From NCBI GenBank assembly GCA_964486505.1, contig CAZAMC010000001.1, positions 26,748 to 90,747 of the forward strand: 64,000 nucleotides of DNA, in the 5' to 3' direction. The number at the start of each line of letters is the position of its first letter. The stretch's first letter is position 1. The notes beneath the pieces were generated by a model that worked only from the letters and a program-made list of their open reading frames with translations, ran no database searches and was not told where the DNA came from. The position numbers were made by a program, and so were the translations under genes. This document shows, piece after piece, positions 343 through 60,281 of this stretch. The stretch is from an uncultured Gammaproteobacteria bacterium (GTDB lineage: Bacteria > Patescibacteriota > Patescibacteriia > PEXW01).

Positions 343-2574
343 ATGAGCACCCGACGAACTGGCGATATTCCCGATGAAAACATCCTCGACCTGCGCGCTC
401 AGCCGCAGGAAGACCCCCATGGGCTAAAACCAAAGCGGGGGAAGAAGCAACACGTGGATTTCCTCTCGCTGGTAGAAGAAGGTGAAGAGCGAGTAACCGA
501 AAAAGTTCACAGCTTTTTTCGGCGTCGGGAGAAGCCACAATCAACAGTTGCACCAGTTGAAGTACCGACCATTGTTGAAACGGCGGCACCGCCGCCCTCA
601 CCGCGCTCCGCATCTCTACCAAATCGAAAGGTGCCCTTTGGGGCGGCGATTCGTTTTGCCGTTTTACTCCTCCTCCTGACGGCGGGGGTTGTTGGTGCCC
701 GCACGCTCGGTAATGTGCAACGTGCGAAGGCTGACGTTTTAGGAACGTCGGCCGAAGCCTTGCAACGCGTCTTGGCTGCTGGCACTGCCGCGCAGGATTT
801 GCAGTTCAACACTTCTGCCGATGAGCTGCAGGCAGCGCAGCAAGCATTCGCTACTGCTGAACAGCAACTCCTGGATGTGGCTGGGTCGCTTTCCAGCCTG
901 CCCGGCGCAGGCAAAGTTCGCCGCGCGCAAGCGTTGCTGGAAGCCGGGCAAGTGGTCACGCAAGCAGCGGCCAAACTGGCGCATGGCGCTCAGGCTTTGG
1001 CCGACGAAGGTGACGGTCTGCCCCTGCTGCGTATCGTCGAGCAATTCCGCACAAGCCTTGCTCCGGCAGCGGTTGACTTGGCTCGTGCAGCAGAGCTCCT
1101 GCAGGAAGTCCAACCAGCGGATATTCCAGAGACGTACCGCGATGCCTTTACAGCTATGCAAGCGCAACTGCCTAGCTTGGAGCAGCAGTTCCGACGGTTG
1201 GAACGGGTGGGCAGTTTCTTGGAGCAGTTTTTAGCCGTTGATGGCACGCCGAAGCGCTACCTCTTCCTTTTTCAGAATTCCAACGAACTGCGGCCTACCG
1301 GTGGCTTCCTTGGGAGCATGGCGGTTGTGGATGTTTCCGGCGGCGCCATTGCGAAAGTAGAGATCCCCTCAGGCGGCATCTACGACATTGCGGGTCAAAC
1401 CGGCTTGCGCTACGTGGCGCCCGAACCCATGCAGCTGGTGCAAGCGAACTGGAACCTGCAGGATGCAAACTGGTTTCCAGATTTTCCCACCTCCGCCCAG
1501 AAGGTGCTGGCATTCTACGAGAGTGCGGGCGAGCCGTCCGTTGATGGCGTAGTTGCATTTACGCCCGCGGTTTTGGAATCGTTTTTGCGGCTCACCGGAC
1601 CGGTTGAAGTGCCCGAGGTCGGGGAGACGTTCACTGCCGAGACCTTTACTACGAAGTTACAAATCCTCATAAAAGAAGCAGAGAAGAAGGATTACACGAA
1701 ACCCAAGCTGGTGCTGGGGTACTTAGCGCCAAAGATTCTTTCGCGGGCGCTTAGCCTAGAGCGCGCGCAGCTCTGGGAGATGTTGGGGAAGTTGCAGGAG
1801 CATTTGGTTAGCCGTGACATTCAGCTGTACTTCACCGATGCCCAGGCACAGGCCACAGTAGCTGACTTGGGGTGGACGGGCGCCCTGCAGACATCGCCGC
1901 GCGATTTCCTCCACGTGAATCGGACCAACCTGGGCGGCGGTAAAACTGATGGGGCCATTGAAGAAGTTGATAGTCATGAGGTGAGCATTGCTCCCGATGG
2001 AACGGTTACCGCCACGCTCACGATAATTCGTAAACACAATGGCCTTGTCGGCGATAAGTTTACCGGGGATCGGAATGTGAGCTACCTGCGTGCGTACGTC
2101 CCGCAGGGGAGTGAGCTCTTGAGTGCGTCGGGATTTGAGCGGATTGACCCCAAGCGGTTTCGGGCGCCCTCGCCCGACCGCGTGCCCGATCCTGATCTTG
2201 TGGCGCTGGACGCGGGCGCAATCGTTGATGCCACATCGGGGACGCGCGTGAGTCAGGAAGGGGGGCGTACCGTGTTTGGGAACTGGATGGGTGTGGGCCC
2301 GGGTGAAGTAGCAAAGGCAACAATCACGTACCGTTTACCTTTCACGCTGAAGGTGGGAGGGCTGCTAGATCGGTCGGATTCGTACAGCCTGTTAGTGCAA
2401 ATGCAGCCTGGAACGCGCGTCAACTTCTCATCCAAACTTTTCTTCCCTCAGGGTTGGGTAACGTCGTGGACAGGAAGCACGGCGCAGGTGTTCACCCAGG
2501 AGTCCGCCGGCACCTACCGCATGAGCGCAGTGCTGGATCGGGATGCGTACTACGGGATGGTGCTAAAAAAGTAA
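343..2574 (+). CDS. DUF4012-like membrane-anchored protein (single N-terminal TM, large extracytoplasmic domain)
   Basis: 743-aa ORF with an N-terminal hydrophobic segment (FAVLLLLLTAGVVGA). Central motif FLFQNSNELRPTGGFLGSMAVVDVSGG matches the DUF4012 signature recalled from surface-polysaccharide loci. Confidence 0.55.
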   Translation: MSTRRTGDIPDENILDLRAQPQEDPHGLKPKRGKKQHVDFLSLVEEGEERVTEKVHSFFRRREKPQSTVAPVEVPTIVETAAPPPSPRSASLPNRKVPFGAAIRFAVLLLLLTAGVVGARTLGNVQRAKADVLGTSAEALQRVLAAGTAAQDLQFNTSADELQAAQQAFATAEQQLLDVAGSLSSLPGAGKVRRAQALLEAGQVVTQAAAKLAHGAQALADEGDGLPLLRIVEQFRTSLAPAAVDLARAAELLQEVQPADIPETYRDAFTAMQAQLPSLEQQFRRLERVGSFLEQFLAVDGTPKRYLFLFQNSNELRPTGGFLGSMAVVDVSGGAIAKVEIPSGGIYDIAGQTGLRYVAPEPMQLVQANWNLQDANWFPDFPTSAQKVLAFYESAGEPSVDGVVAFTPAVLESFLRLTGPVEVPEVGETFTAETFTTKLQILIKEAEKKDYTKPKLVLGYLAPKILSRALSLERAQLWEMLGKLQEHLVSRDIQLYFTDAQAQATVADLGWTGALQTSPRDFLHVNRTNLGGGKTDGAIEEVDSHEVSIAPDGTVTATLTIIRKHNGLVGDKFTGDRNVSYLRAYVPQGSELLSASGFERIDPKRFRAPSPDRVPDPDLVALDAGAIVDATSGTRVSQEGGRTVFGNWMGVGPGEVAKATITYRLPFTLKVGGLLDRSDSYSLLVQMQPGTRVNFSSKLFFPQGWVTSWTGSTAQVFTQESAGTYRMSAVLDRDAYYGMVLKK

Positions 2575-2697
2575 CGTCATTGCGACCCCCATGAGGTCGT
2601 TGTTCAGAAACCACGAAAGAGCCAGCATAGCCAGCATTTAATAGCGTCAGTAAATGGCTCAGTTGAGCCATTTTGGCTTACCTTAGCCATATTTAGT

Positions 2698-2726
2698 CTT
2701 GACACAGTATGCACAGGCGTGTATAC
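2698..2726 (+). promoter_or_regulatory. Consensus sigma70-type promoter (TTGACA-17 nt-TATACT)
   Basis: Direct read: ttgaca cagtatgcacaggcgtg tatact. No convincing long ORF lies downstream; the repeats and small ORFs follow. Confidence 0.5.
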
Positions 2727-2915
2727 TGCTCCGTTACGTTGAAAATCTAGCATTTCCCCTAGTAGTCCAGTTTGCCGAAAGAGAGAGCGGCCAGCCGGAC
2801 AAGCCCAATGTTGCTATTGGGCGTATCCCAGGTGCTCTCTCGCAGAGGACCTGCGTTTTGTGTGCAGCGATATGGAGGGGGTTGTGCTTACGAAAGTAAG
2901 CGCAAGCGAGATGTG

Positions 2916-3020
2916 AGGGAGCGGTATCGCGTGGGGTTTACTCCACAAAGACACTTAACCTTCGTTGGGGTGCGGGCTTCGGTCCAAAGCACCCTACGTC
3001 TCACCTCCAGATCGTTACGC
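2916..3020. repeat. Copy A of a ~100-nt direct repeat (shared 38-nt identical core ggagcggtatcgcgtggggtttactccacaaagacact)
   Basis: Aligned by eye to copy B at 3075-3185, roughly 85 percent identity. Both end with tcacctccagat. Confidence 0.6.
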
Positions 3021-3074
3021 GCAATCGCCCATGCAATTTGACAATTCTTTCTATCAACTTGGAGGCGAATTTTT

Positions 3075-3185
3075 CGATGGAGCGGTATCGCGTGGGGTTT
3101 ACTCCACAAAGACACTCAACCGTCACTCGGGCGTGGGCTTCGGTCCAAAACGCCTTTCACTCACCTCCAGATTGATGGAAGGAAC
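3075..3185. repeat. Copy B of the ~100-nt direct repeat
   Basis: See copy A. Spacing between copies is about 60 nt. The reading frames differ between copies, which argues against a protein-coding repeat. Confidence 0.6.
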
Positions 3186-3208
3186 ATGATTTTATTCTCG
3201 GAGGATGT

Positions 3209-3415
3209 ATGGCAGTTGTTGAGTTCTTACGGCGTAGTCTGCGGTATCTCTATGGGGCACTGCTTCTTATGACCATTCCGGATGAATGGTTTCACGCAGA
3301 GATGGTAGTGCAGGGGATATCCCAACCGAGTATCTGGCGTTCGCGTCAGGATTACATGGGTGGAGCACTACTCTACCGCGCATCGTTTACAAGGGCGTTG
3401 CATTACTTTCAGTAA
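3209..3415 (+). CDS. Hypothetical small protein (68 aa)
   Basis: Strong RBS ggagga 5 nt upstream of ATG. No recognisable domain. Confidence 0.2.
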   Translation: MAVVEFLRRSLRYLYGALLLMTIPDEWFHAEMVVQGISQPSIWRSRQDYMGGALLYRASFTRALHYFQ

Positions 3416-3717
3416 TCGCTACCCCAGTTGACCTTTGGGCAAGAGAGTTGGATGAAACCTTCTCTCTTTCTCATCCCGAACGATCTTCATCGAAGGTCAC
3501 TCGAGATGAGCAACATTTCCCTCTTCGATATGGAGGGGTTTGGGTACTGGTGGTGCTAGCATTGCGGCGGGTTTCACTCGCCAAAAACGTTTGGCCCATC
3601 ACCGCGCATCGCAGCTTCGGCTGCAAAGGTGCGCACATGTCCAGGGGTTTCCCCTGGCTCTCTTGCCCACGCCTCCAGATCGAAGAAGGAAAACAAGAAT
3701 CTCAAAGCGAGGTAGAT

Positions 3718-3972
3718 ATGCAGATCATAAGACTGTTTCGTGCGGTAAAGACGACTGTCCGATGGCAATACGAAGAGTACCAGCATCGCAAAAGGCAGCG
3801 AAAAGCGTGGCAAGATACCATCCGCACAATCGACCAGTATATGGCCGAAGCGCGGGAAAAACGCTTCCGGTATTCAGAAGCCGGTCTGACCAAGGCGGTC
3901 CTTCGCATGCACAGGTTTGAATTGAGGTTGGTGTTCGCGAAGGAAATCTGCGTGGCGATGTTGAGTCGCTAA
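3718..3972 (+). CDS. Hypothetical small basic protein (84 aa)
   Basis: RBS gaggt 4 nt upstream of ATG. Helical, Lys/Arg-rich sequence, no recognisable domain. Confidence 0.2.
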   Translation: MQIIRLFRAVKTTVRWQYEEYQHRKRQRKAWQDTIRTIDQYMAEAREKRFRYSEAGLTKAVLRMHRFELRLVFAKEICVAMLSR

Positions 3973-4002
3973 GCAATTACCAAATCCAGTTAAGGGAGGA
4001 AA

Positions 4003-4125
4003 GATGATAGCATTGTTCATTTCAGCAAGCGTGGTACTGGCCATCGTCATTCTATACTCGGTGGTGTACTACCGGGTGATAACTGCGGTCAGTTCGTGCG
4101 TTGCTAAGTTCGCCCCGTTGCGCTA
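4003..4125 (+). CDS. Hypothetical 40-aa hydrophobic peptide (MIALFISASVVLAIVILYSVVYYRVITAVSSCVAKFAPLR)
   Basis: RBS agggagg 5-6 nt upstream of ATG. Single predicted TM helix. Not in the ORF track because it is under 60 aa. Confidence 0.3.
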
Positions 4126-4347
4126 AGCGGGAAGAGGTAAGCAGGAGCCTTTGTTCTTATCCTGCACTTCCCTCAAACGGTTTCACGACGAAGCCGGGTG
4201 AGGGAAGTAAAAAAATTACGGCTGGTGTGGCGAGGGGCCACCGGATGATAGCCCGGAGCGAAGGAACGCTCGGCACGCAAGTGCACAGGGATCGAAACCC
4301 TTCCAGCCTACAAAATGTTCCAGCGGACTCCCTGCCGCTGGTTTACC

Positions 4348-4387
4348 GAGAAGGGCAGCCAATAGTGTTGCTCCGGCTGCCCTTCTC
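4348..4387 (+). promoter_or_regulatory. Perfect 13-bp stem / 14-nt loop hairpin followed by T-rich tract (candidate terminator/attenuator arm)
   Basis: gagaagggcagcc-aatagtgttgctcc-ggctgcccttctc, then tttctc. Its 3' side overlaps the 5' arm of the downstream leader hairpin, so the two structures are mutually exclusive. Confidence 0.4.
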
Positions 4388-4431
4388 TTTCTCCCCCAAG
4401 CGTTGAAATACTTCGACGGGTGGGGGAGAAG
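4383..4431 (+). promoter_or_regulatory. Leader hairpin element copy 1 (ttctccccc...gcgttgaaatacttcgacgggt...gggggagaa), ~35 nt upstream of the ATG of the 4465 gene
   Basis: Outer stem is ttctccc/gggagaa, with an inner 7-bp stem cgttgaa/ttcgacg. The core is 30/31 identical to copy 2 at 4949-4979. Confidence 0.5.
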
Positions 4432-4464
4432 ATAAGAAAAAGTGAACATAAAAGGAGGCAGTGT

Positions 4465-4893
4465 ATGCGGAAGTTTTTGCTGGACGTGCTGATAATTTTC
4501 GCATTTATCGAAGTCTATCTGTTGTTCGTGGTGGCCTCCATTGACATACTGCCCTTTGCGTATGTCAGTGGCGTGACCTTCTCCGGGTATGTGTGGGCAA
4601 GTTTATTCATCGTTGTGACAATTACGGTCCTACGGTGGGCTCGTAAGAAGCTCGCCGTACGTGACGATGAGTATTTCTTGAAGCTCAAGTACCATTCGGA
4701 AACGTGCAGCGTGGCAATTTTTGTCTTGCTTGCCTGGGAAACCGGCAAAGCTTGGTACATCTGCGGATTGCCCGTGGTCCTCCAGTGCCTATGGGGGATC
4801 ATTACATGTGTCGTGGTCACAGCGTTTGTTGGAATAGTGGTCAGGAGCCATCTCAAACAGAGATACCAGCGCATCCTTTCGGCGCAGCGATAA
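4465..4893 (+). CDS. Small polytopic membrane protein (about 4 TM), hypothetical
   Basis: RBS aaggagg 7 nt upstream of ATG 4465. Hydrophobic segments LLDVLIIFAFIEVYLLFVVA, VWASLFIVVTITVL, VAIFVLLAW and LWGIITCVVVTAFVGIVV. Confidence 0.55.
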   Translation: MRKFLLDVLIIFAFIEVYLLFVVASIDILPFAYVSGVTFSGYVWASLFIVVTITVLRWARKKLAVRDDEYFLKLKYHSETCSVAIFVLLAWETGKAWYICGLPVVLQCLWGIITCVVVTAFVGIVVRSHLKQRYQRILSAQR

Positions 4894-4936
4894 AAAGATT
4901 CTTTGGAAAAGTGGCGAGTTGCACCTGCAGCTCGTC

Positions 4937-4979
4937 CTTCTCCCTCACGCGTTGAAACACTTCGACGGGTGGGGGAGAA
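4937..4979 (+). promoter_or_regulatory. Leader hairpin element copy 2, ~32 nt upstream of the ATG of the 5011 gene
   Basis: ccttctccctcacgcgttgaaacacttcgacgggtgggggagaa has the same nested hairpin as copy 1. Confidence 0.5.
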
Positions 4980-5010
4980 ACACAACAGAACCCACTATCA
5001 AGGAGGATAC

Positions 5011-5433
5011 ATGCAAGGATACCGGCATGTTTTCGAAGGATCACTCTTCATGCTTGGGTGCTTCACTGGGGTGACCTGTGTCATCCTGCTCATGAACCCC
5101 AGTGTGGACGCGCTGCAATTCGTGTGGCAGTACGGCCGTTTCCCGTTTGGCATTGTCATCGCTGCTCTCTACCTAGGAGCGCGAGGTATAGCCTGTACAC
5201 GGACGGAGTTTATCTCGTACAGTCGGGTTGTACTCTTCGTCATCGGGGGGCTGTTCACACTCTTCGGTGTGATTAGCACCGTGGGGAACCTCGTCGGCGA
5301 CGGTACCCAGGATCAAACACTGAATACAGCGTCGGTACTCGCGGTCGGAGCAGCAATGCTTACTGTCAGCTGGTTAACCCGGCGCATTGCCGGCACTTCC
5401 TGCTGGCCACAGGTAAAATCAATGCTCTCGTAG
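5011..5433 (+). CDS. Small polytopic membrane protein (about 4 TM), hypothetical
   Basis: RBS aggagga 5 nt upstream of ATG 5011. Hydrophobic helices throughout. Confidence 0.55.
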   Translation: MQGYRHVFEGSLFMLGCFTGVTCVILLMNPSVDALQFVWQYGRFPFGIVIAALYLGARGIACTRTEFISYSRVVLFVIGGLFTLFGVISTVGNLVGDGTQDQTLNTASVLAVGAAMLTVSWLTRRIAGTSCWPQVKSMLS

Positions 5434-5728
5434 GTCATTGAGGAAGGTGAGTGACATAGGATTGTCGCTCGCCTCTCTCCCAGAGTCCCGCAGTGCGGGA
5501 TTGCGGGAGGGGCTTGCAACCGTAAGGCACGGGCCTATACTCGAGGCGCCTCCTCTGCCCCCGCCCACCGGATACCTTCCTACGATCTCAGGTTTGAAGA
5601 AATCCACTAGGACTCTCTCCCTGCTGGATAGACGTGAACCCGGGTATTAGTCGCACGGTATCGGTGGGCAAGGACAGAGGGGAAAGAGAGAGCGAAAGCA
5701 CCACGCTTGATAAAAGCGTGGTTTTTTC
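5434..5728 (+). ncRNA. Candidate structured leader/cis-regulatory RNA or sRNA ending in an intrinsic terminator immediately upstream of murJ
   Basis: No credible ORF in the region. GC-rich paired segments include ctcccagagtcccgcagtgcgggattgcgggagg. It ends in the terminator at 5700-5728. Confidence 0.3.
5700..5728 (+). terminator. Rho-independent terminator (9-bp stem accacgctt / aagcgtggt, loop gataa, then TTTTTT)
   Basis: Direct read. It lies 18 nt before the murJ ATG (5746) and inside the TTG-started ORF of the track, so it forces the later start. Confidence 0.6.
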
Positions 5729-5745
5729 GTATTCTGCATCCACCT

Positions 5746-7371
5746 ATGTGGACGAAACTCTGGACAAAACTCTCCACCACTATCCTTGGCGGAGCCATCG
5801 TTATTGGCTTTACGGGCATCATTAGCCGGTTCCTGGGGTTGCTCCGTGACCGGCTTCTGGCCAGTGAGTTTGGCGGTAGCGGTGCGCTCGACCCGTACTT
5901 CGCTGCATTTAAGCTACCCGACTTCATCTTTAACGTCCTCGTCCTGGGGGCGCTTTCGTCTTCGTTCATTCCAGTTTTTGTTCAGTACCTGAAGAAAGAA
6001 GAAGGTGGCCTCACACGAGATAGCGAAGCGTGGCGCATTGCGAACTCTGTGCTCAATCTCTTGCTCATCGTTCTCATTGGACTCGGCATTCTCTTCTTCG
6101 CTTTTGCCAACCAGCTCGTCCCCCTCATCGCCCCGGGCTTTTCCGGAGAGCAATTGGAAACGACAATCCACCTAAGCCGTATCATGTTGGTGGCAATTAT
6201 TTTCTTTGGCGCGAGCAATATTGTTTCGGCAATCCTTAACTCCTTCAAGCGCTTCTTCGCGTTCGCGCTAGCGCCGGTTCTCTACAACCTCGGCATCATC
6301 TTGGGCATTGTGGTCTTTGTCCCGAAGTGGGGGCTTGTCGGGCTTGCTTACGGTGTGGTTGTGGGCGCCTTTGCGCACCTGGTCATACAGCTACCAGGCG
6401 TCTTCCGAGTGGGCTTTCGGTACCAACGCATTCTGGATCTGAAGCACGCGGGCGTGAGGCAAATTGGCAAGCTCATGTTACCGCGAACATTTGGTTTGGC
6501 GGTTAATCAAATTGACCAGCTGGTGAGCACCATCATTGCCTCGGGCCTTGCTGCTGGGAGCCTGACGCAATTCAACTTTGCGAATAACCTCCAGAATTTT
6601 CCAATTAATGTGTTTGGCGTTTCTCTGGCCATTGCGGTGTTCCCAGCATTTTCCGAAGCGTATGCGGCAAAAGATATGCAGGCTTTTGTCGTACACTTTT
6701 CTCGAACCGTTCGCCGCTTGTTGGTTGTCATGATCCCGGCCTCGATCCTGCTTCTCATTCTGCGGGCGCAGATTGTGCGGGTGGTCGTGGGCGCACAGGC
6801 TTTTGACTGGGACGCCACCTACCAGACAGCCCAAGTGCTGGGCTACTTCACTCTTTCCATTTTTGCTCAGGCGCTCATTCCCATCCTGGCACGGTCGTTC
6901 TACGCTCTGCACGATACGGCAACTCCGGTGAAGGTTGGCATTGTGGCTGTTGCGGTTGACATTGCCGCCGCCCTCAGCCTGGCGCCGCGGTATGGGGTCA
7001 TTGGTCTAGCGCTCGCTTTTTCCATTTCCAGTTTGGTAAACATGCTGAGCCTCTACATTATTCTTCGGCGCCGCATAGGGGACTTGGACGATGCACGCAT
7101 TTCTCGCACGACCCTAAAAATTGTGCTTGCCTCGTTGGTGGCAGGCGGGGTGGCGTGGTTGGTACTGCGCTTTGCCGCGCTCGGTGTTGATATGCGCTCG
7201 CTCGTTGGCATCTTCTTGCAAGGTTTCGTTGCGGGGTGTGCCGGAATTTTTGCCTTCCTCGTTGCGGCCTCGATCTTGCGGGTTGAAGAGGTGCAAGTTC
7301 TGCATAGCTGGTGGAGACGGGTCGTGGCATTCCTTCGCAATGGCTCGCGTAACGGGACCGTTCAGCCATGA
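5746..7371 (+). CDS. murJ: Lipid II flippase MurJ (MviN)
   Basis: FAAFKLPDFIFNVLVLGALSSSFIPVF is the MurJ N-terminal signature. The protein has about 14 TM segments, and the C-terminal region is also typical. Start is placed at the first ATG after the terminator. Confidence 0.85.
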   Translation: MWTKLWTKLSTTILGGAIVIGFTGIISRFLGLLRDRLLASEFGGSGALDPYFAAFKLPDFIFNVLVLGALSSSFIPVFVQYLKKEEGGLTRDSEAWRIANSVLNLLLIVLIGLGILFFAFANQLVPLIAPGFSGEQLETTIHLSRIMLVAIIFFGASNIVSAILNSFKRFFAFALAPVLYNLGIILGIVVFVPKWGLVGLAYGVVVGAFAHLVIQLPGVFRVGFRYQRILDLKHAGVRQIGKLMLPRTFGLAVNQIDQLVSTIIASGLAAGSLTQFNFANNLQNFPINVFGVSLAIAVFPAFSEAYAAKDMQAFVVHFSRTVRRLLVVMIPASILLLILRAQIVRVVVGAQAFDWDATYQTAQVLGYFTLSIFAQALIPILARSFYALHDTATPVKVGIVAVAVDIAAALSLAPRYGVIGLALAFSISSLVNMLSLYIILRRRIGDLDDARISRTTLKIVLASLVAGGVAWLVLRFAALGVDMRSLVGIFLQGFVAGCAGIFAFLVAASILRVEEVQVLHSWWRRVVAFLRNGSRNGTVQP

Positions 7372-58193: not shown

Positions 58194-60281
58194 ATGCAGG
58201 TTTTTCAGTCAGCGATTCTGCGTACACTGCCAGGAATTACACACGGGACGGCGCCAAAATCAGCGCAGCCGCTCACTTTTTCCGGTCACACCCGGCAGAG
58301 TGTTCGGCGCTCGCGCGCGCATTTTGCGAAACAGCTTCATGTTAACGTTCATCACCTTACCTTAGGGCGGCAGGTGCATGGTACAAAGGTGCGGATTGTT
58401 GACGACGAGCAGTGTGGTGCAGGCGCCCTTGACCCGGCTACGTACCTTCCGCGCACTGACGGTCTGCTTACCCAGCGACCGGGAATCGCTTTGGGAATCT
58501 TTACCGCTGACTGCGTACCGGTGCTTTTGGCGGATCCCCGTACGGGTTGGATTGGTGCGCTCCATGTGGGTTGGCGGGGTGCTGTGAACGGGATCGCGGC
58601 CGTGGCCTTGGCGGCACTGCAGAAGCACGGTGTACGCATGCAGGATGTCCGGGTGTGGCTGGGTCCAGCAATCTGCGGTGATTGTTATTCGGGCCACGAT
58701 CGGCAGCGCACGCAAAAGTTAGCCCGCGCTTTTGGCGGTCACGGTGTAGGGCGCCATGCAGGGCATGTGCACGTCGATCTTCGACAGGGGTTGCACTGGC
58801 AGCTTCGTCGCTCTGGCATTCTCACCCGGCATATCGAAATTTCTCCGGTTTGCACTTTTGAGGAACGGCGACTCCCTTCCCACCGCCGAGAAGGGCACGG
58901 TCACGCAAATACCTTGACCGTCATCTCACGTGCTTCATTGCCGGGTGATGTTCGAGGTTTACGGGTAGCAGTCCTTGGTCTGGGCGTACAGGGTGGGGGA
59001 GAAGCCAGTGTCCGGGCAGCGGCGCTCGGGCACGCGCAGTCAGTTTTGGCTCTTGATGAAAAGCCAGCGGCGGTTTTCAAGGACGTCAGGCGGCGGCTGA
59101 GAGCGCTGAACATCGCGTATGCGTTTGGGCCCACGGTTCGTACGGCGTCGGCGAAAGTTGATTGGGTGGTGAAGAACCCTGGCGTACCGCTCACTCATCC
59201 CTACCTCAAGCGGGCCCGGCAGGCAGGAGCAAGTCTGGTAACCGATATTGGCTGGTTTCGCGCGTTGCACGACAACCCGGTCATTGCGGTGACGGGTACC
59301 AAGGGGAAGTCTACTGTCGTTTCGTGGCTAGCGCATGTGCTCCGGGGGGTTCACCGGCGCGTAGAACTGGCGGGAAATGTTCGGCGGTCCCCATTGGACA
59401 TTCAGAAATTGCAGCCTGAGACGCCGGTGATTCTCGAGTTATCATCATTCCAACTCGAAGCACTGGAAGTTCCCCTGGCGGCAAAACTCGCGATTGTTAC
59501 TAATCTCTACCCCGACCATTTGAATCGACACCGGTCTATGCGGACGTATGCGCGGGTGAAGTCCAGGTTGTCGGCCGGGCAGGATCGGCACAGCACACTC
59601 ATCCTGCCACTGGATAGTGAGTGGCCACAGTTTGGAAATATTCAATCTCCGGCGAAACGATTTTTTTCGAGCCTCGTATCCCAGCCAAAGTCAGATGCCT
59701 ACATCCGTAATGGGTGGATTGTGCTCCACGGTCGGCGCCTTGTGCAAACTCGCACACTCCGCATTCAGGATGTGGGTTCGCTCCGTAATGCGGTTACCGT
59801 TGCTCTTGCGGCTGCTGCTTGGGGCGTGCCCCGAAGGGTCATTACGAAGCGGCTCTGCACCTTCACGGGGGTGCCGGAACGTTTCCAGGTCATACGCAGG
59901 TATAGGGGGCGGACCTTTATCAACAATACAACCGCGACGAACCCAATCTCAGCAGCCTTTGGCATGCAGAGCGTGGCCGGCTCGTTCATACTCATTGCGG
60001 GGGGCGCTGACAAGGGCTTACCACTTGGCCCTATGTTGCATGCAGCAAAGCGTTCTCGGTGTGTGGTGCTCTTACCTGGTTCAGCGACCAAATTACTCAA
60101 GAAGCGCTTAGAGTGTCCCACGGTGGCTGCAACTTCCATGCGTGAAGCTGTGCGAGTAGCCTGGAAGCAGTCTCAAACCGGAGATACTATTCTGCTTTCG
60201 CCAGGCGCTGCGAGTTTTGGCATATTTACGAATGAATTTGATCGGGGCGCGCAGTTCACCACTGCAGTCCGCGCATTATGA
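58194..60281 (+). CDS. murD: Fusion protein: N-terminal YfiH/PgeF (DUF152, peptidoglycan-editing factor / purine nucleoside phosphorylase family) domain plus C-terminal UDP-N-acetylmuramoylalanine--D-glutamate ligase MurD
   Basis: - **PgeF part, residues 1-~240:** FTADCVPVLLAD...GALHVGWRG is the PgeF/YfiH signature, followed by a His/Cys-containing C-terminal region.
- **MurD part, residues ~245-695:** VAVLGLGVQGG, the P-loop AVTGTKGKSTV and the C-terminal ligase domain.
A single uninterrupted frame. Confidence 0.8.
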   Translation: MQVFQSAILRTLPGITHGTAPKSAQPLTFSGHTRQSVRRSRAHFAKQLHVNVHHLTLGRQVHGTKVRIVDDEQCGAGALDPATYLPRTDGLLTQRPGIALGIFTADCVPVLLADPRTGWIGALHVGWRGAVNGIAAVALAALQKHGVRMQDVRVWLGPAICGDCYSGHDRQRTQKLARAFGGHGVGRHAGHVHVDLRQGLHWQLRRSGILTRHIEISPVCTFEERRLPSHRREGHGHANTLTVISRASLPGDVRGLRVAVLGLGVQGGGEASVRAAALGHAQSVLALDEKPAAVFKDVRRRLRALNIAYAFGPTVRTASAKVDWVVKNPGVPLTHPYLKRARQAGASLVTDIGWFRALHDNPVIAVTGTKGKSTVVSWLAHVLRGVHRRVELAGNVRRSPLDIQKLQPETPVILELSSFQLEALEVPLAAKLAIVTNLYPDHLNRHRSMRTYARVKSRLSAGQDRHSTLILPLDSEWPQFGNIQSPAKRFFSSLVSQPKSDAYIRNGWIVLHGRRLVQTRTLRIQDVGSLRNAVTVALAAAAWGVPRRVITKRLCTFTGVPERFQVIRRYRGRTFINNTTATNPISAAFGMQSVAGSFILIAGGADKGLPLGPMLHAAKRSRCVVLLPGSATKLLKKRLECPTVAATSMREAVRVAWKQSQTGDTILLSPGAASFGIFTNEFDRGAQFTTAVRAL

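Follow-up and report, generated by a model that had tools for sequence, protein, structure and literature searches.

A hairpin repeated in front of two small membrane-protein genes of a patescibacterium is one half of a recurrent bipartite intergenic module

Why should two small genes with no similarity to each other be preceded by one and the same hairpin? The question is raised by a locus upstream of murJ in an uncultured member of the Patescibacteriota, lying in a 64-kb stretch of contig CAZAMC010000001.1 (below, the window is this whole stretch). Patescibacteria have tiny genomes with few recognisable regulators, and their fast-evolving envelope proteins are thought to be important for host-attached life; to our knowledge, how they organise the expression of envelope genes is largely unknown. 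A preliminary description of the window had reported a nested hairpin, present twice, and had proposed for it the role of a riboswitch, an attenuator or a target site of a small RNA (sRNA). According to our analysis the hairpin is real, but its wider context had been missed: the two copies are one sequence version, type A, of the second hairpin (H2) in a bipartite module that recurs across an island of small genes. We consider it quite possible, though short of probable, that the role of the element is static and structural, as a component of modules that punctuate the transcript between cistrons, perhaps combined in copy 2 with translational coupling. The copies, their spacers and the genes behind them are situated as follows (nt, nucleotides; aa, amino acids; bp, base pairs; ORF, open reading frame).

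4388..4431, plus strand: copy 1, type A H2, with 5′ arm UUUCUCCCCCA, inner stem CGUUGAA/UUCGACG and 3′ arm UGGGGGAGAAG
4432..4464, plus strand: spacer of copy 1, A-rich, with the Shine-Dalgarno sequence AAGGAGG at 4452-4458, predicted to be 84% unpaired
4465..4893, plus strand: ORFan gene for a 142-aa hydrophobic protein (ORF, homology search, hydropathy)
4938..4979, plus strand: copy 2, type A H2 (repeat search and fold)
4980..5010, plus strand: spacer of copy 2, with the Shine-Dalgarno sequence AAGGAGG at 5000-5006
5011..5433, plus strand: gene for a 140-aa polytopic membrane protein of a fast-evolving family (ORF, homology comparison)

In the whole window there are exactly two occurrences of the 31-nt core GCGTTGAAAYACTTCGACGGGTGGGGGAGAA (4400-4430 and 4949-4979), and a core match was found in none of 100 dinucleotide-preserving shuffles; the repeat grows to 45 nt at 91% identity (4386-4430 versus 4935-4979), so that the reported double occurrence is indeed beyond chance. 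One more exact GGGTGGGGGAGAAG at 58991-59004 is located inside a 695-aa ORF (..VQGGGEA..) and has no hairpin partner; it was set aside as a coincidence. The nested outer and inner stems were likewise recovered in both copies: an outer stem of 11 bp, a small internal loop, an inner stem of 7 bp and a loop of 4 nt. The predicted free energies are -27.9 kcal/mol for copy 1 (4383-4431 folded; z -6.0) and -29.6 kcal/mol for copy 2 (4937-4979 folded; z -7.9), the antisense strands being weaker (-23.5 and -19.8 kcal/mol, respectively). For H2 the minimum-energy fold is the centroid fold (-28 to -30 kcal/mol), and no competing structure is seen. A type A covariance model, built from nine copies, scores copy 1 at 69.7 bits on the plus and 40.0 bits on the minus strand, and copy 2 at 73.7 and 38.4 bits.

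The ATG codons at 4465 and 5011, each with its AAGGAGG upstream, follow the hairpins after gaps of 33 nt (copy 1) and 31 nt (copy 2), which agrees with the short distance noted earlier. The two leaders share the hairpin alone, their flanking hairpins, spacers and coding sequences all being different, and therefore a recent duplication that included coding sequence, an objection anticipated in the preliminary description, is ruled out. The 142-aa and 140-aa proteins have no relationship to each other, and in a search of 5.8 billion proteins each matched itself alone; Pfam gave nothing above threshold for 15 proteins of the island region, both of these included. Their description as small proteins with four transmembrane helices stands as far as the hydrophobic, multi-segment character is concerned: Kyte-Doolittle profiles reveal several hydrophobic segments in both, which fits about four helices, this count being approximate, as segments merge in the 142-aa protein. 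Homologues of the 140-aa protein in the related loci L008, L007 and L025 are only 22-27% identical to it, while MurJ is 75-82% identical; judging from these comparisons, the island proteins would be evolving very fast or in a diversifying manner. The leaders of these homologues have other H2 sequences and the same architecture. The 140-aa protein is also encoded on Logan contigs, but these do not differ from the window and add no information.

The architecture in question became apparent from the leaders of nearly all island genes, folded in seven genomes. Almost every island gene is preceded, in the 5′ to 3′ order, by a first hairpin (H1), H2, an A-rich spacer, a Shine-Dalgarno site and the start codon. 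H1 is a GC-rich, terminator-like hairpin of variable sequence. H2 starts 0-3 nt after it; its pyrimidine-rich 5′ arm is the very tract behind H1, purines prevail in its 3′ arm, and between the arms is a small variable inner stem-loop. The spacer is unstructured and 10-35 nt long. At least 24 distinct outer-stem sequences of H2 were encountered (among them UUCUCCC/GGGAGAA, CUCUCCC/GGGAGAG, CUUCCCU/GGGAAG, CUCCCAU/AUGGGAG and UUUUUUC/GAAAAGA), and in two of the other H2 versions compensatory changes affect 4 of 15 and 4 of 7 predicted pairs. A mechanical scan for complete modules retrieved 33 in 36 kb of island DNA versus 2 in 126 kb of flanks, a density about 57-fold higher per kb; 43 of the 105 pyrimidine/purine hairpins of the islands abut an H1, and the 33 complete modules are among these. 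In 35 H2 hairpins we counted 68 G·U pairs in the sense versus 24 in the antisense orientation, and the sense strand is the more stable one in 29 of the 35 (Wilcoxon p = 4e-6). On these comparative grounds H2 is shown to be a real structure, and one at work in the sense RNA. Besides the two type A hairpins, the modules of the window include the following parts.

4348..4387, plus strand: H1 of module 1, 13-bp GC-rich stem, abutting H2; kept in L008a and L005
4913..4936, plus strand: H1 of module 2, GGCGAGUUGCA..UGCAGCUCGUC; two compensatory pairs versus L031
5446..5512, plus strand: third module, H1 at 5446-5473, then a type B H2, CUCUCCCAGAG-UCCCGcaguGCGGGA-UUGCGGGAG
4166..4208, plus strand: H2-like hairpin, CUUCCCUCA / UGAGGGAAG, then an A-rich linker; precedes a five-helix RNA domain, not an ORF

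The third module has no ORF behind it in this genome; the outer stem of type B has four compensatory pairs over eight loci. As for the hairpin at 4166-4208, it reaches 25.5 bits with the type A model and has four compensatory pairs in its orthologues. Since this module (4166-4219) precedes a non-coding domain, the role of the modules is not tied to translation alone.

How far beyond the window the element extends was judged from a species-level scan (one genome per species) for TTCGACGGGTGGGGGAGA, which returned 16 loci. The complete element was found in three genomes of Patescibacteria, each time 5′ of a small hydrophobic ORF, and these three loci are syntenic with the window: the array of small ORFs lies directly upstream of murJ-lepA, and the MurJ proteins are 75-82% identical. 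The loci L021, L023, L024, L025, L027 and L031 were added through a MurJ-anchored metagenome search and look-ups of MurJ homologues. In the window and in L025 the island is situated between a DUF4012 gene and murJ. In the outgroup L030 (MurJ 65%) the DUF4012 stop is 4 nt from the murJ start (6997-7001), the corresponding interval of the window being 2574-5746; hence the array, 2-7 kb long, is a clade-specific insertion between those genes. Both the gene content and the number of genes in the island vary widely among genomes whose MurJ proteins are 75-88% identical.

In total, type A is represented by 11 copies in six genomes (two each in the window, L021 and L031, three in L008, one each in L005 and L007), all on the sense strand and inside the island, with scores of 60-74 bits in the sense and 20-40 bits in the antisense orientation. 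The model detected no copy elsewhere in the window, in the flanks of about 126 kb or in L030. Thus the element is kept in five other genomes, at 84-91% identity between genomes versus 68-75% for murJ DNA, and the ORFs between the modules have no detectable DNA similarity across genomes. In the alignment of the 11 copies, 95.7% of the pair cells are paired. The inner loop is closed by a pair that takes A-U, G-C and U-A forms, and five other pairs vary as C-G/U-G only, all changes in the 5′ arm being from C to U with G opposite; the stem is thus kept by a single compensatory pair together with these five. The conservation of leader and pairing on which the preliminary description made its proposal depend is accordingly present, as is the contrast it drew between a conserved structured leader and dissimilar genes, the element being kept on the sense strand before unrelated proteins. 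Of the loop, 10 sequence variants exist among the 11 copies. All 11 agree in the 3′ arm, CGACrGGUGGGGGAGAA, and in the inner stem, where a U·G pair is fixed and a G·G mismatch is present, while the loop and the 5′ arm vary; the G·G (± A·G) mismatch is the sole conserved unpaired feature of type A.

These figures bear on the simplest explanation, namely that the repeats are non-functional leftovers of tandem duplication kept alike by gene conversion. It is true that the genomes compared are all close relatives and that the repeats within one genome resemble each other. Yet the element is more conserved than the DNA of its essential neighbour murJ, its substitutions keep the pairing in a strand-specific manner, and the architecture survives complete sequence turnover of both arms, all of which makes this explanation highly improbable.

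Still more improbable, in our opinion, is that the element is a riboswitch or a ligand-responsive attenuator. Its conserved position in the 5′ leader is what one would look for in such a regulator, and the Shine-Dalgarno-like 3′ arm does pair with an anti-Shine-Dalgarno-like 5′ arm. However, it is a simple hairpin lacking a multi-helix junction; the loop variability leaves no conserved ligand pocket, there are no mutually exclusive folds and no U-tract, and the Shine-Dalgarno sequence lies 20 nt downstream, outside the hairpin. Variable loops and the missing competing fold make a riboswitch unlikely. The genes behind it are unrelated ORFans with no Pfam match and no functional coherence, nor is there a match in Rfam: the scan of the whole window gave none at gathering score, and at E ≤ 10 the region 2500-5800 yielded only chance matches of microRNA type, in keeping with the earlier remark that the element corresponds to no motif that could be named. 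A search of the window for tRNA and tmRNA was negative, and in the literature on RNA motifs of Patescibacteria nothing relevant was found. The element is thus outside any described family; what is new is its form and its little-studied genomic setting, intergenic RNA hairpins as such being known. The proposed attenuator fails for one more reason, as H2 is followed by an A-rich spacer and not by a run of U. Neither is the Shine-Dalgarno sequence enclosed in H2, a trait of RNA thermometers of the fourU and ROSE kinds: the site is 9-36 nt downstream, and H2 is very stable.

If the element does not switch, what may it do in a transcript of the island? The question leads to the start of this transcript.

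2699..2727, plus strand: sigma-70-like promoter (TTGACA, 17 nt, TATACT; score 11/12) at the head of the island

No other good consensus promoter precedes the gene array; the stretch 2666-2757, which surrounds this one, is kept in L025 at 78%, and the sequence GTTACGTTGAAAATCTA downstream of it is conserved. The island transcript is likely to start here. A scan for consensus sigma-70-like promoters found none within the modules of the window or of L027. With one strong promoter and no consensus promoter in the modules, the island looks polycistronic, and its genes probably need read-through. A promoter within the element itself was considered on account of TTGAAA in the inner stem and rejected, this hexamer having no -10 partner. 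In L027, an AT-richer relative, there are H1 hairpins with six consecutive U behind them, the arrangement of a canonical terminator, and these U form the 5′ arm of H2. That the 5′ arm of H2 is a terminator tail explains the pyrimidine/purine polarity of the arms.

From these features we infer a part for the module in termination efficiency, read-through, RNA processing, mRNA protection and translational coupling. Transcription of the island would proceed mainly from the single strong promoter at 2699-2727. H1 with the pyrimidine tract would act as a leaky terminator or as the 3′-end hairpin of the upstream unit, and in the read-through RNA H2 would form a very stable clamp that marks and protects the 5′ boundary of the next unit, at the same time locking away the anti-Shine-Dalgarno-like pyrimidine tract. 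H1 and H2 could, moreover, be two arms of a three-way junction. In copy 2 a third helix may join the box described below, just past the upstream stop, to the downstream Shine-Dalgarno sequence, in which case the end of translation on the upstream gene and translation of the downstream one would be coupled. Finally, the repeated hairpins may provide short tracts of homology for swapping or deleting island genes.

The same polycistronic transcript is a starting point for another explanation: H2, perhaps stacked on H1, would be a processing site for RNase III or another double-strand nuclease that cuts the island RNA into separate mRNAs. Its model is the early region of phage T7, where RNase III acts on intercistronic hairpins, irregular helices of about 20 bp with an internal loop, in a polycistronic RNA made from end promoters. 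H2 has about 18-19 bp in two stems with a small conserved internal loop (A/C-G opposite G-G), roughly the geometry of a 20-bp irregular helix, and it abuts H1, which makes coaxial stacking possible; the likeness to the T7 sites, which also stand between dissimilar genes, is an analogy. One strong promoter without internal consensus promoters implies a polycistronic RNA, and a non-coding unit is flanked by modules as well. On the other hand, stem lengths and internal loops differ widely among the H2 versions, and recognition by RNase III does not need the polarity of pyrimidine and purine arms. The modules differ from the T7 sites precisely in this strict polarity and in that H2 always abuts a terminator-like hairpin, while cleavage is, in their case, hypothetical. 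We regard a nuclease site as unlikely, if worth keeping among the alternatives.

The coupling proposed as part of the static structural role concerns module 2, which as a whole is predicted to fold into a three-way junction.

4899..4906, plus strand: UUCUUUGG box, 5 nt past the stop of the 142-aa gene; predicted pairing with the Shine-Dalgarno region 4998-5005

The probability of pairing between UUCUUUGG and the Shine-Dalgarno sequence is 0.77, and none of 15 shuffles of the flank reaches this value. The junction sequestering the Shine-Dalgarno sequence is kept in three orthologous modules (L008, L031), with different genes downstream and with two compensatory pairs in H1. This suggests, at the level of predicted folding, that the module of copy 2 couples the translation of the neighbouring genes. 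Long-range RNA structure couples the translation of adjacent cistrons in the RNA phage MS2 and in some ribosomal-protein operons. Copy 2 is similar in that the partner of its downstream Shine-Dalgarno sequence is situated at the upstream stop, so that a ribosome terminating there would melt the pairing; it is different in that this pairing is predicted, and in a subset of modules only.

Several observations weigh against the static structural role that we favour. Firstly, pairing of the Shine-Dalgarno sequence with the upstream flank is not general (mean 0.32 for native versus 0.28 for shuffled flanks, p = 0.47), so that pairing with the upstream stop was rejected as a general rule, being overall like that of shuffled flanks and holding for a subset that includes copy 2. 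Secondly, the U-tracts of H1 in the window are weak (UUUCUCCC, CUUCUCCC), and the terminator scan made no call there. Thirdly, a mutation of the 3′ arm in silico lowers the accessibility of the Shine-Dalgarno sequence of copy 1 from 0.84 to 0.42, but the mean unpaired probability is 0.58 for native modules, 0.47 for 3′-arm mutants and 0.57 with both arms mutated, and the shielding is strong in just about 8 of 29 modules; as a general function of the 3′ arm it was therefore dismissed, its average effect being only modest. Fourthly, covariation within type A is thin, amounting to one pair, and part of the conservation could be due to gene conversion, all the genomes compared being close relatives. 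Each functional step of the scheme is, besides, an inference. The last point is the 3′ arm, which is invariant even where changes from U·G to U-A would be tolerable; this invariance hints at a sequence-specific partner and is not explained by a purely structural role.

Such a partner is what the second alternative postulates: a dedicated RNA-binding protein, or some other factor acting in trans, would bind type A H2 and so co-regulate the genes of the island. Protein binding would explain the invariant 3′ arm and, with it, the inner stem with its fixed U·G pair and G·G mismatch in 11 of 11 copies, next to a variable loop and 5′ arm; the same H2 version is also found before unrelated genes within one genome. 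However, L024, L025 and L027 use very different H2 sequences at equivalent positions, even before orthologous genes, and with such turnover in close relatives a sequence-specific factor would need to co-evolve. No candidate regulator is present in the island, the proteins tested having no Pfam match above threshold. As to a factor acting by base pairing, an sRNA-like unit adjacent to murJ (described below) has no genome-specific complementarity to the element: energies of pairing with its purine-rich 3′ region are no better within than between genomes (the row of the window excluded), so that this partner was rejected, and the option of an sRNA target, raised in the preliminary description, finds no support. 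We hold a dedicated binding site to be improbable, somewhat more so than nuclease processing; both remain alternatives to a static structural role in punctuation.

The variability of the island brings in an explanation at the level of DNA, according to which the hairpins are recombination sites bounding mobile cassettes, similar to attC of integrons. Integron attC/CALIN arrays consist of hairpin-forming repeats, homogeneous in each genome, between unrelated small ORFans of a variable array. The repeats of the island, too, are near-identical hairpins, homogeneous within a genome, that separate unrelated ORFan genes, and the gene content differs between genomes with MurJ proteins 75-88% identical. 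There is, furthermore, a mosaic junction at H2: in module 2 of the window the UUCUUUGG box, H1 and H2 match L008b (88%), whereas the spacer, the Shine-Dalgarno sequence and the gene match L008c. Nevertheless, as read from the sequence, the hairpin boundaries have no R″/R′ core sites (RYYYAAC / GTTRRRY): the outer ends are UUCUCCC and GGGAGAA, and the lone GTT belongs to the inner stem, where its context, GTTGAAA, departs from GTTRRRY. The unit consists of two adjacent hairpins and not of one hairpin of 57-141 nt, the island of the window and of L025, with the DUF4012 gene and murJ on its two sides, shows no integrase-like gene within or next to it, the asymmetry of G·U pairs favours sense RNA over either DNA strand alone, and ordinary homologous recombination explains the mosaic equally well. 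An integron attC, with both core sites and integrase missing at the locus, was rejected, and a DNA-level recombination site of any such kind appears very unlikely.

Recombination may all the same be a by-product: the genes on both sides of the shared module 2 are unrelated between the window and L008, and the repeated hairpins could also act as points of exchange, as far as the mosaic allows one to judge. In this respect the closest described analogue appears to be the PeSL (promoter-early stem-loop) cassette of T4-type phages, in which a conserved motif, both terminator and promoter, brings about the shuffling of small ORFans (PMC2839356, PMC4122927). Common to both are a short conserved motif with a terminator stem-loop between small ORFans and a hyperplastic region flanked by conserved core genes; a function as points of homologous exchange may be common to them too, as the mosaic junction at H2 suggests. 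PeSL differs in having an early promoter, while the modules contain no consensus promoter; the second element here is a pyrimidine/purine hairpin followed by a Shine-Dalgarno sequence, and the host is a chromosome of Patescibacteria, not a phage. With respect to phages, a search of viral contigs with a 17-mer of the hairpin gave chance coding matches only.

Among chromosomal repeats, REP/BIME and Correia-type elements are co-transcribed intergenic palindromes that can affect the ends and stability of mRNA and that promote recombination, and they are dispersed genome-wide. Type A is different in being confined to the island within the window and flanks (about 126 kb in all).

Two observations concern the island as a whole. 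Independent assemblies of the clade often break inside or just downstream of it (L001 and L002, which start at window positions 4782 and 4788, and also L026, L029, L032 and L033), and several contigs of the clade keep just 140-412 nt upstream of murJ; this suggests strain-level heterogeneity near the island. In L005 (about 2117-2245) and L008 (7900-8000, minus strand) a palindromic insert, GTCATTGCGAGCCCGAGTGCACGAGGGCGCG...CGCAATGAC, is located between the five-helix domain and module 1; it is not present in the window and resembles a small mobile repeat.

The five-helix domain itself, which follows the H2-like hairpin at 4166-4208, is the most elaborate non-coding neighbour of the repeated element.

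4220..4308, plus strand: five-helix RNA domain, GGCUGG...CGGAUGAKAGCCCGGAGC...ACAGGG...CCCUUCCAGCC, upstream of module 1

It is known from five loci (window 4220-4308, L005 2013-2101, L021 3315-3412, L024 1813-1911, L031 1404-1492), is about 95 nt long and combines an invariant core (CGGAUGAKAGCCCGGAGC, ACAGGG..CCCUUCCAGCC) with two covarying hairpins, 7 of 29 pairs covarying in the five sequences. It has no Rfam match, and a 16-mer from it gave chance coding matches only in viral contigs. We regard it as a better riboswitch or ribozyme candidate than the hairpin itself.

Taken together, the locus has a compact layout based on RNA structure, in which conserved two-hairpin modules frame genes diverged to 22-27%. 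One may go further and imagine a clade-specific system of RNA punctuation that serves a hypervariable island of ORFan genes encoding envelope proteins, in which one promoter gives one long transcript, modules delimit cistrons and non-coding RNA, some of them couple translation, constraint exceeds that on murJ, and portable homology serves shuffling, making up a cellular counterpart of PeSL headed by the five-helix RNA; in such a system the latter may be a sensor, a ribozyme or an antiterminator. This wider picture is a conjecture that we find doubtful, clearly more so than the structural role of the element taken alone. If confirmed, the locus would offer a concrete, testable example, from an uncultured lineage, of RNA structures serving as punctuation and of cassettes being shuffled. 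The five-helix domain (4220-4308) and the unit upstream of murJ (5548-5729) are unnamed structured RNAs worth curating as families.

The latter belongs to the sRNA-like unit mentioned above (5514-5729), located directly 5′ of murJ. Its parts are a promoter-like site (5514-5541), a hairpin that is long and irregular, and a canonical terminator (5693-5729) ending 17 nt short of the ATG of murJ (5746). Eight loci keep the core of the unit, with 10 covarying pairs, and no Rfam match was obtained. The unit could be an independent sRNA or a leader/attenuator of murJ. A purine-rich 13-mer, GAAAGAGAGAGCG, is identical at 2777-2789, near the start of the island transcript, and at 5682-5694, in the single-stranded 3′ part of the unit.

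Tandem repeats of about 110 nt are found nearer to the head of the island, at 2915-3024 and 3076-3184 (87% identical over 79 nt). Each has two hairpins, one of them with a UUCG loop, and ends in the anti-Shine-Dalgarno-like CACCUCCAGAU; they are also present in L025 (5256-5525, where the tandem pair is kept) and L005 (8-159). Ends like theirs, CAC(C/G)CCUCCAGA, precede other small ORFs (3154-3184, 3662-3692). A very hydrophobic 40-aa ORF at 4004-4126 has a strong Shine-Dalgarno sequence, AAGGGAGG, and a pyrimidine/purine hairpin of its own (3899-3944), and it is weakly similar to a 79-aa island protein of L025.

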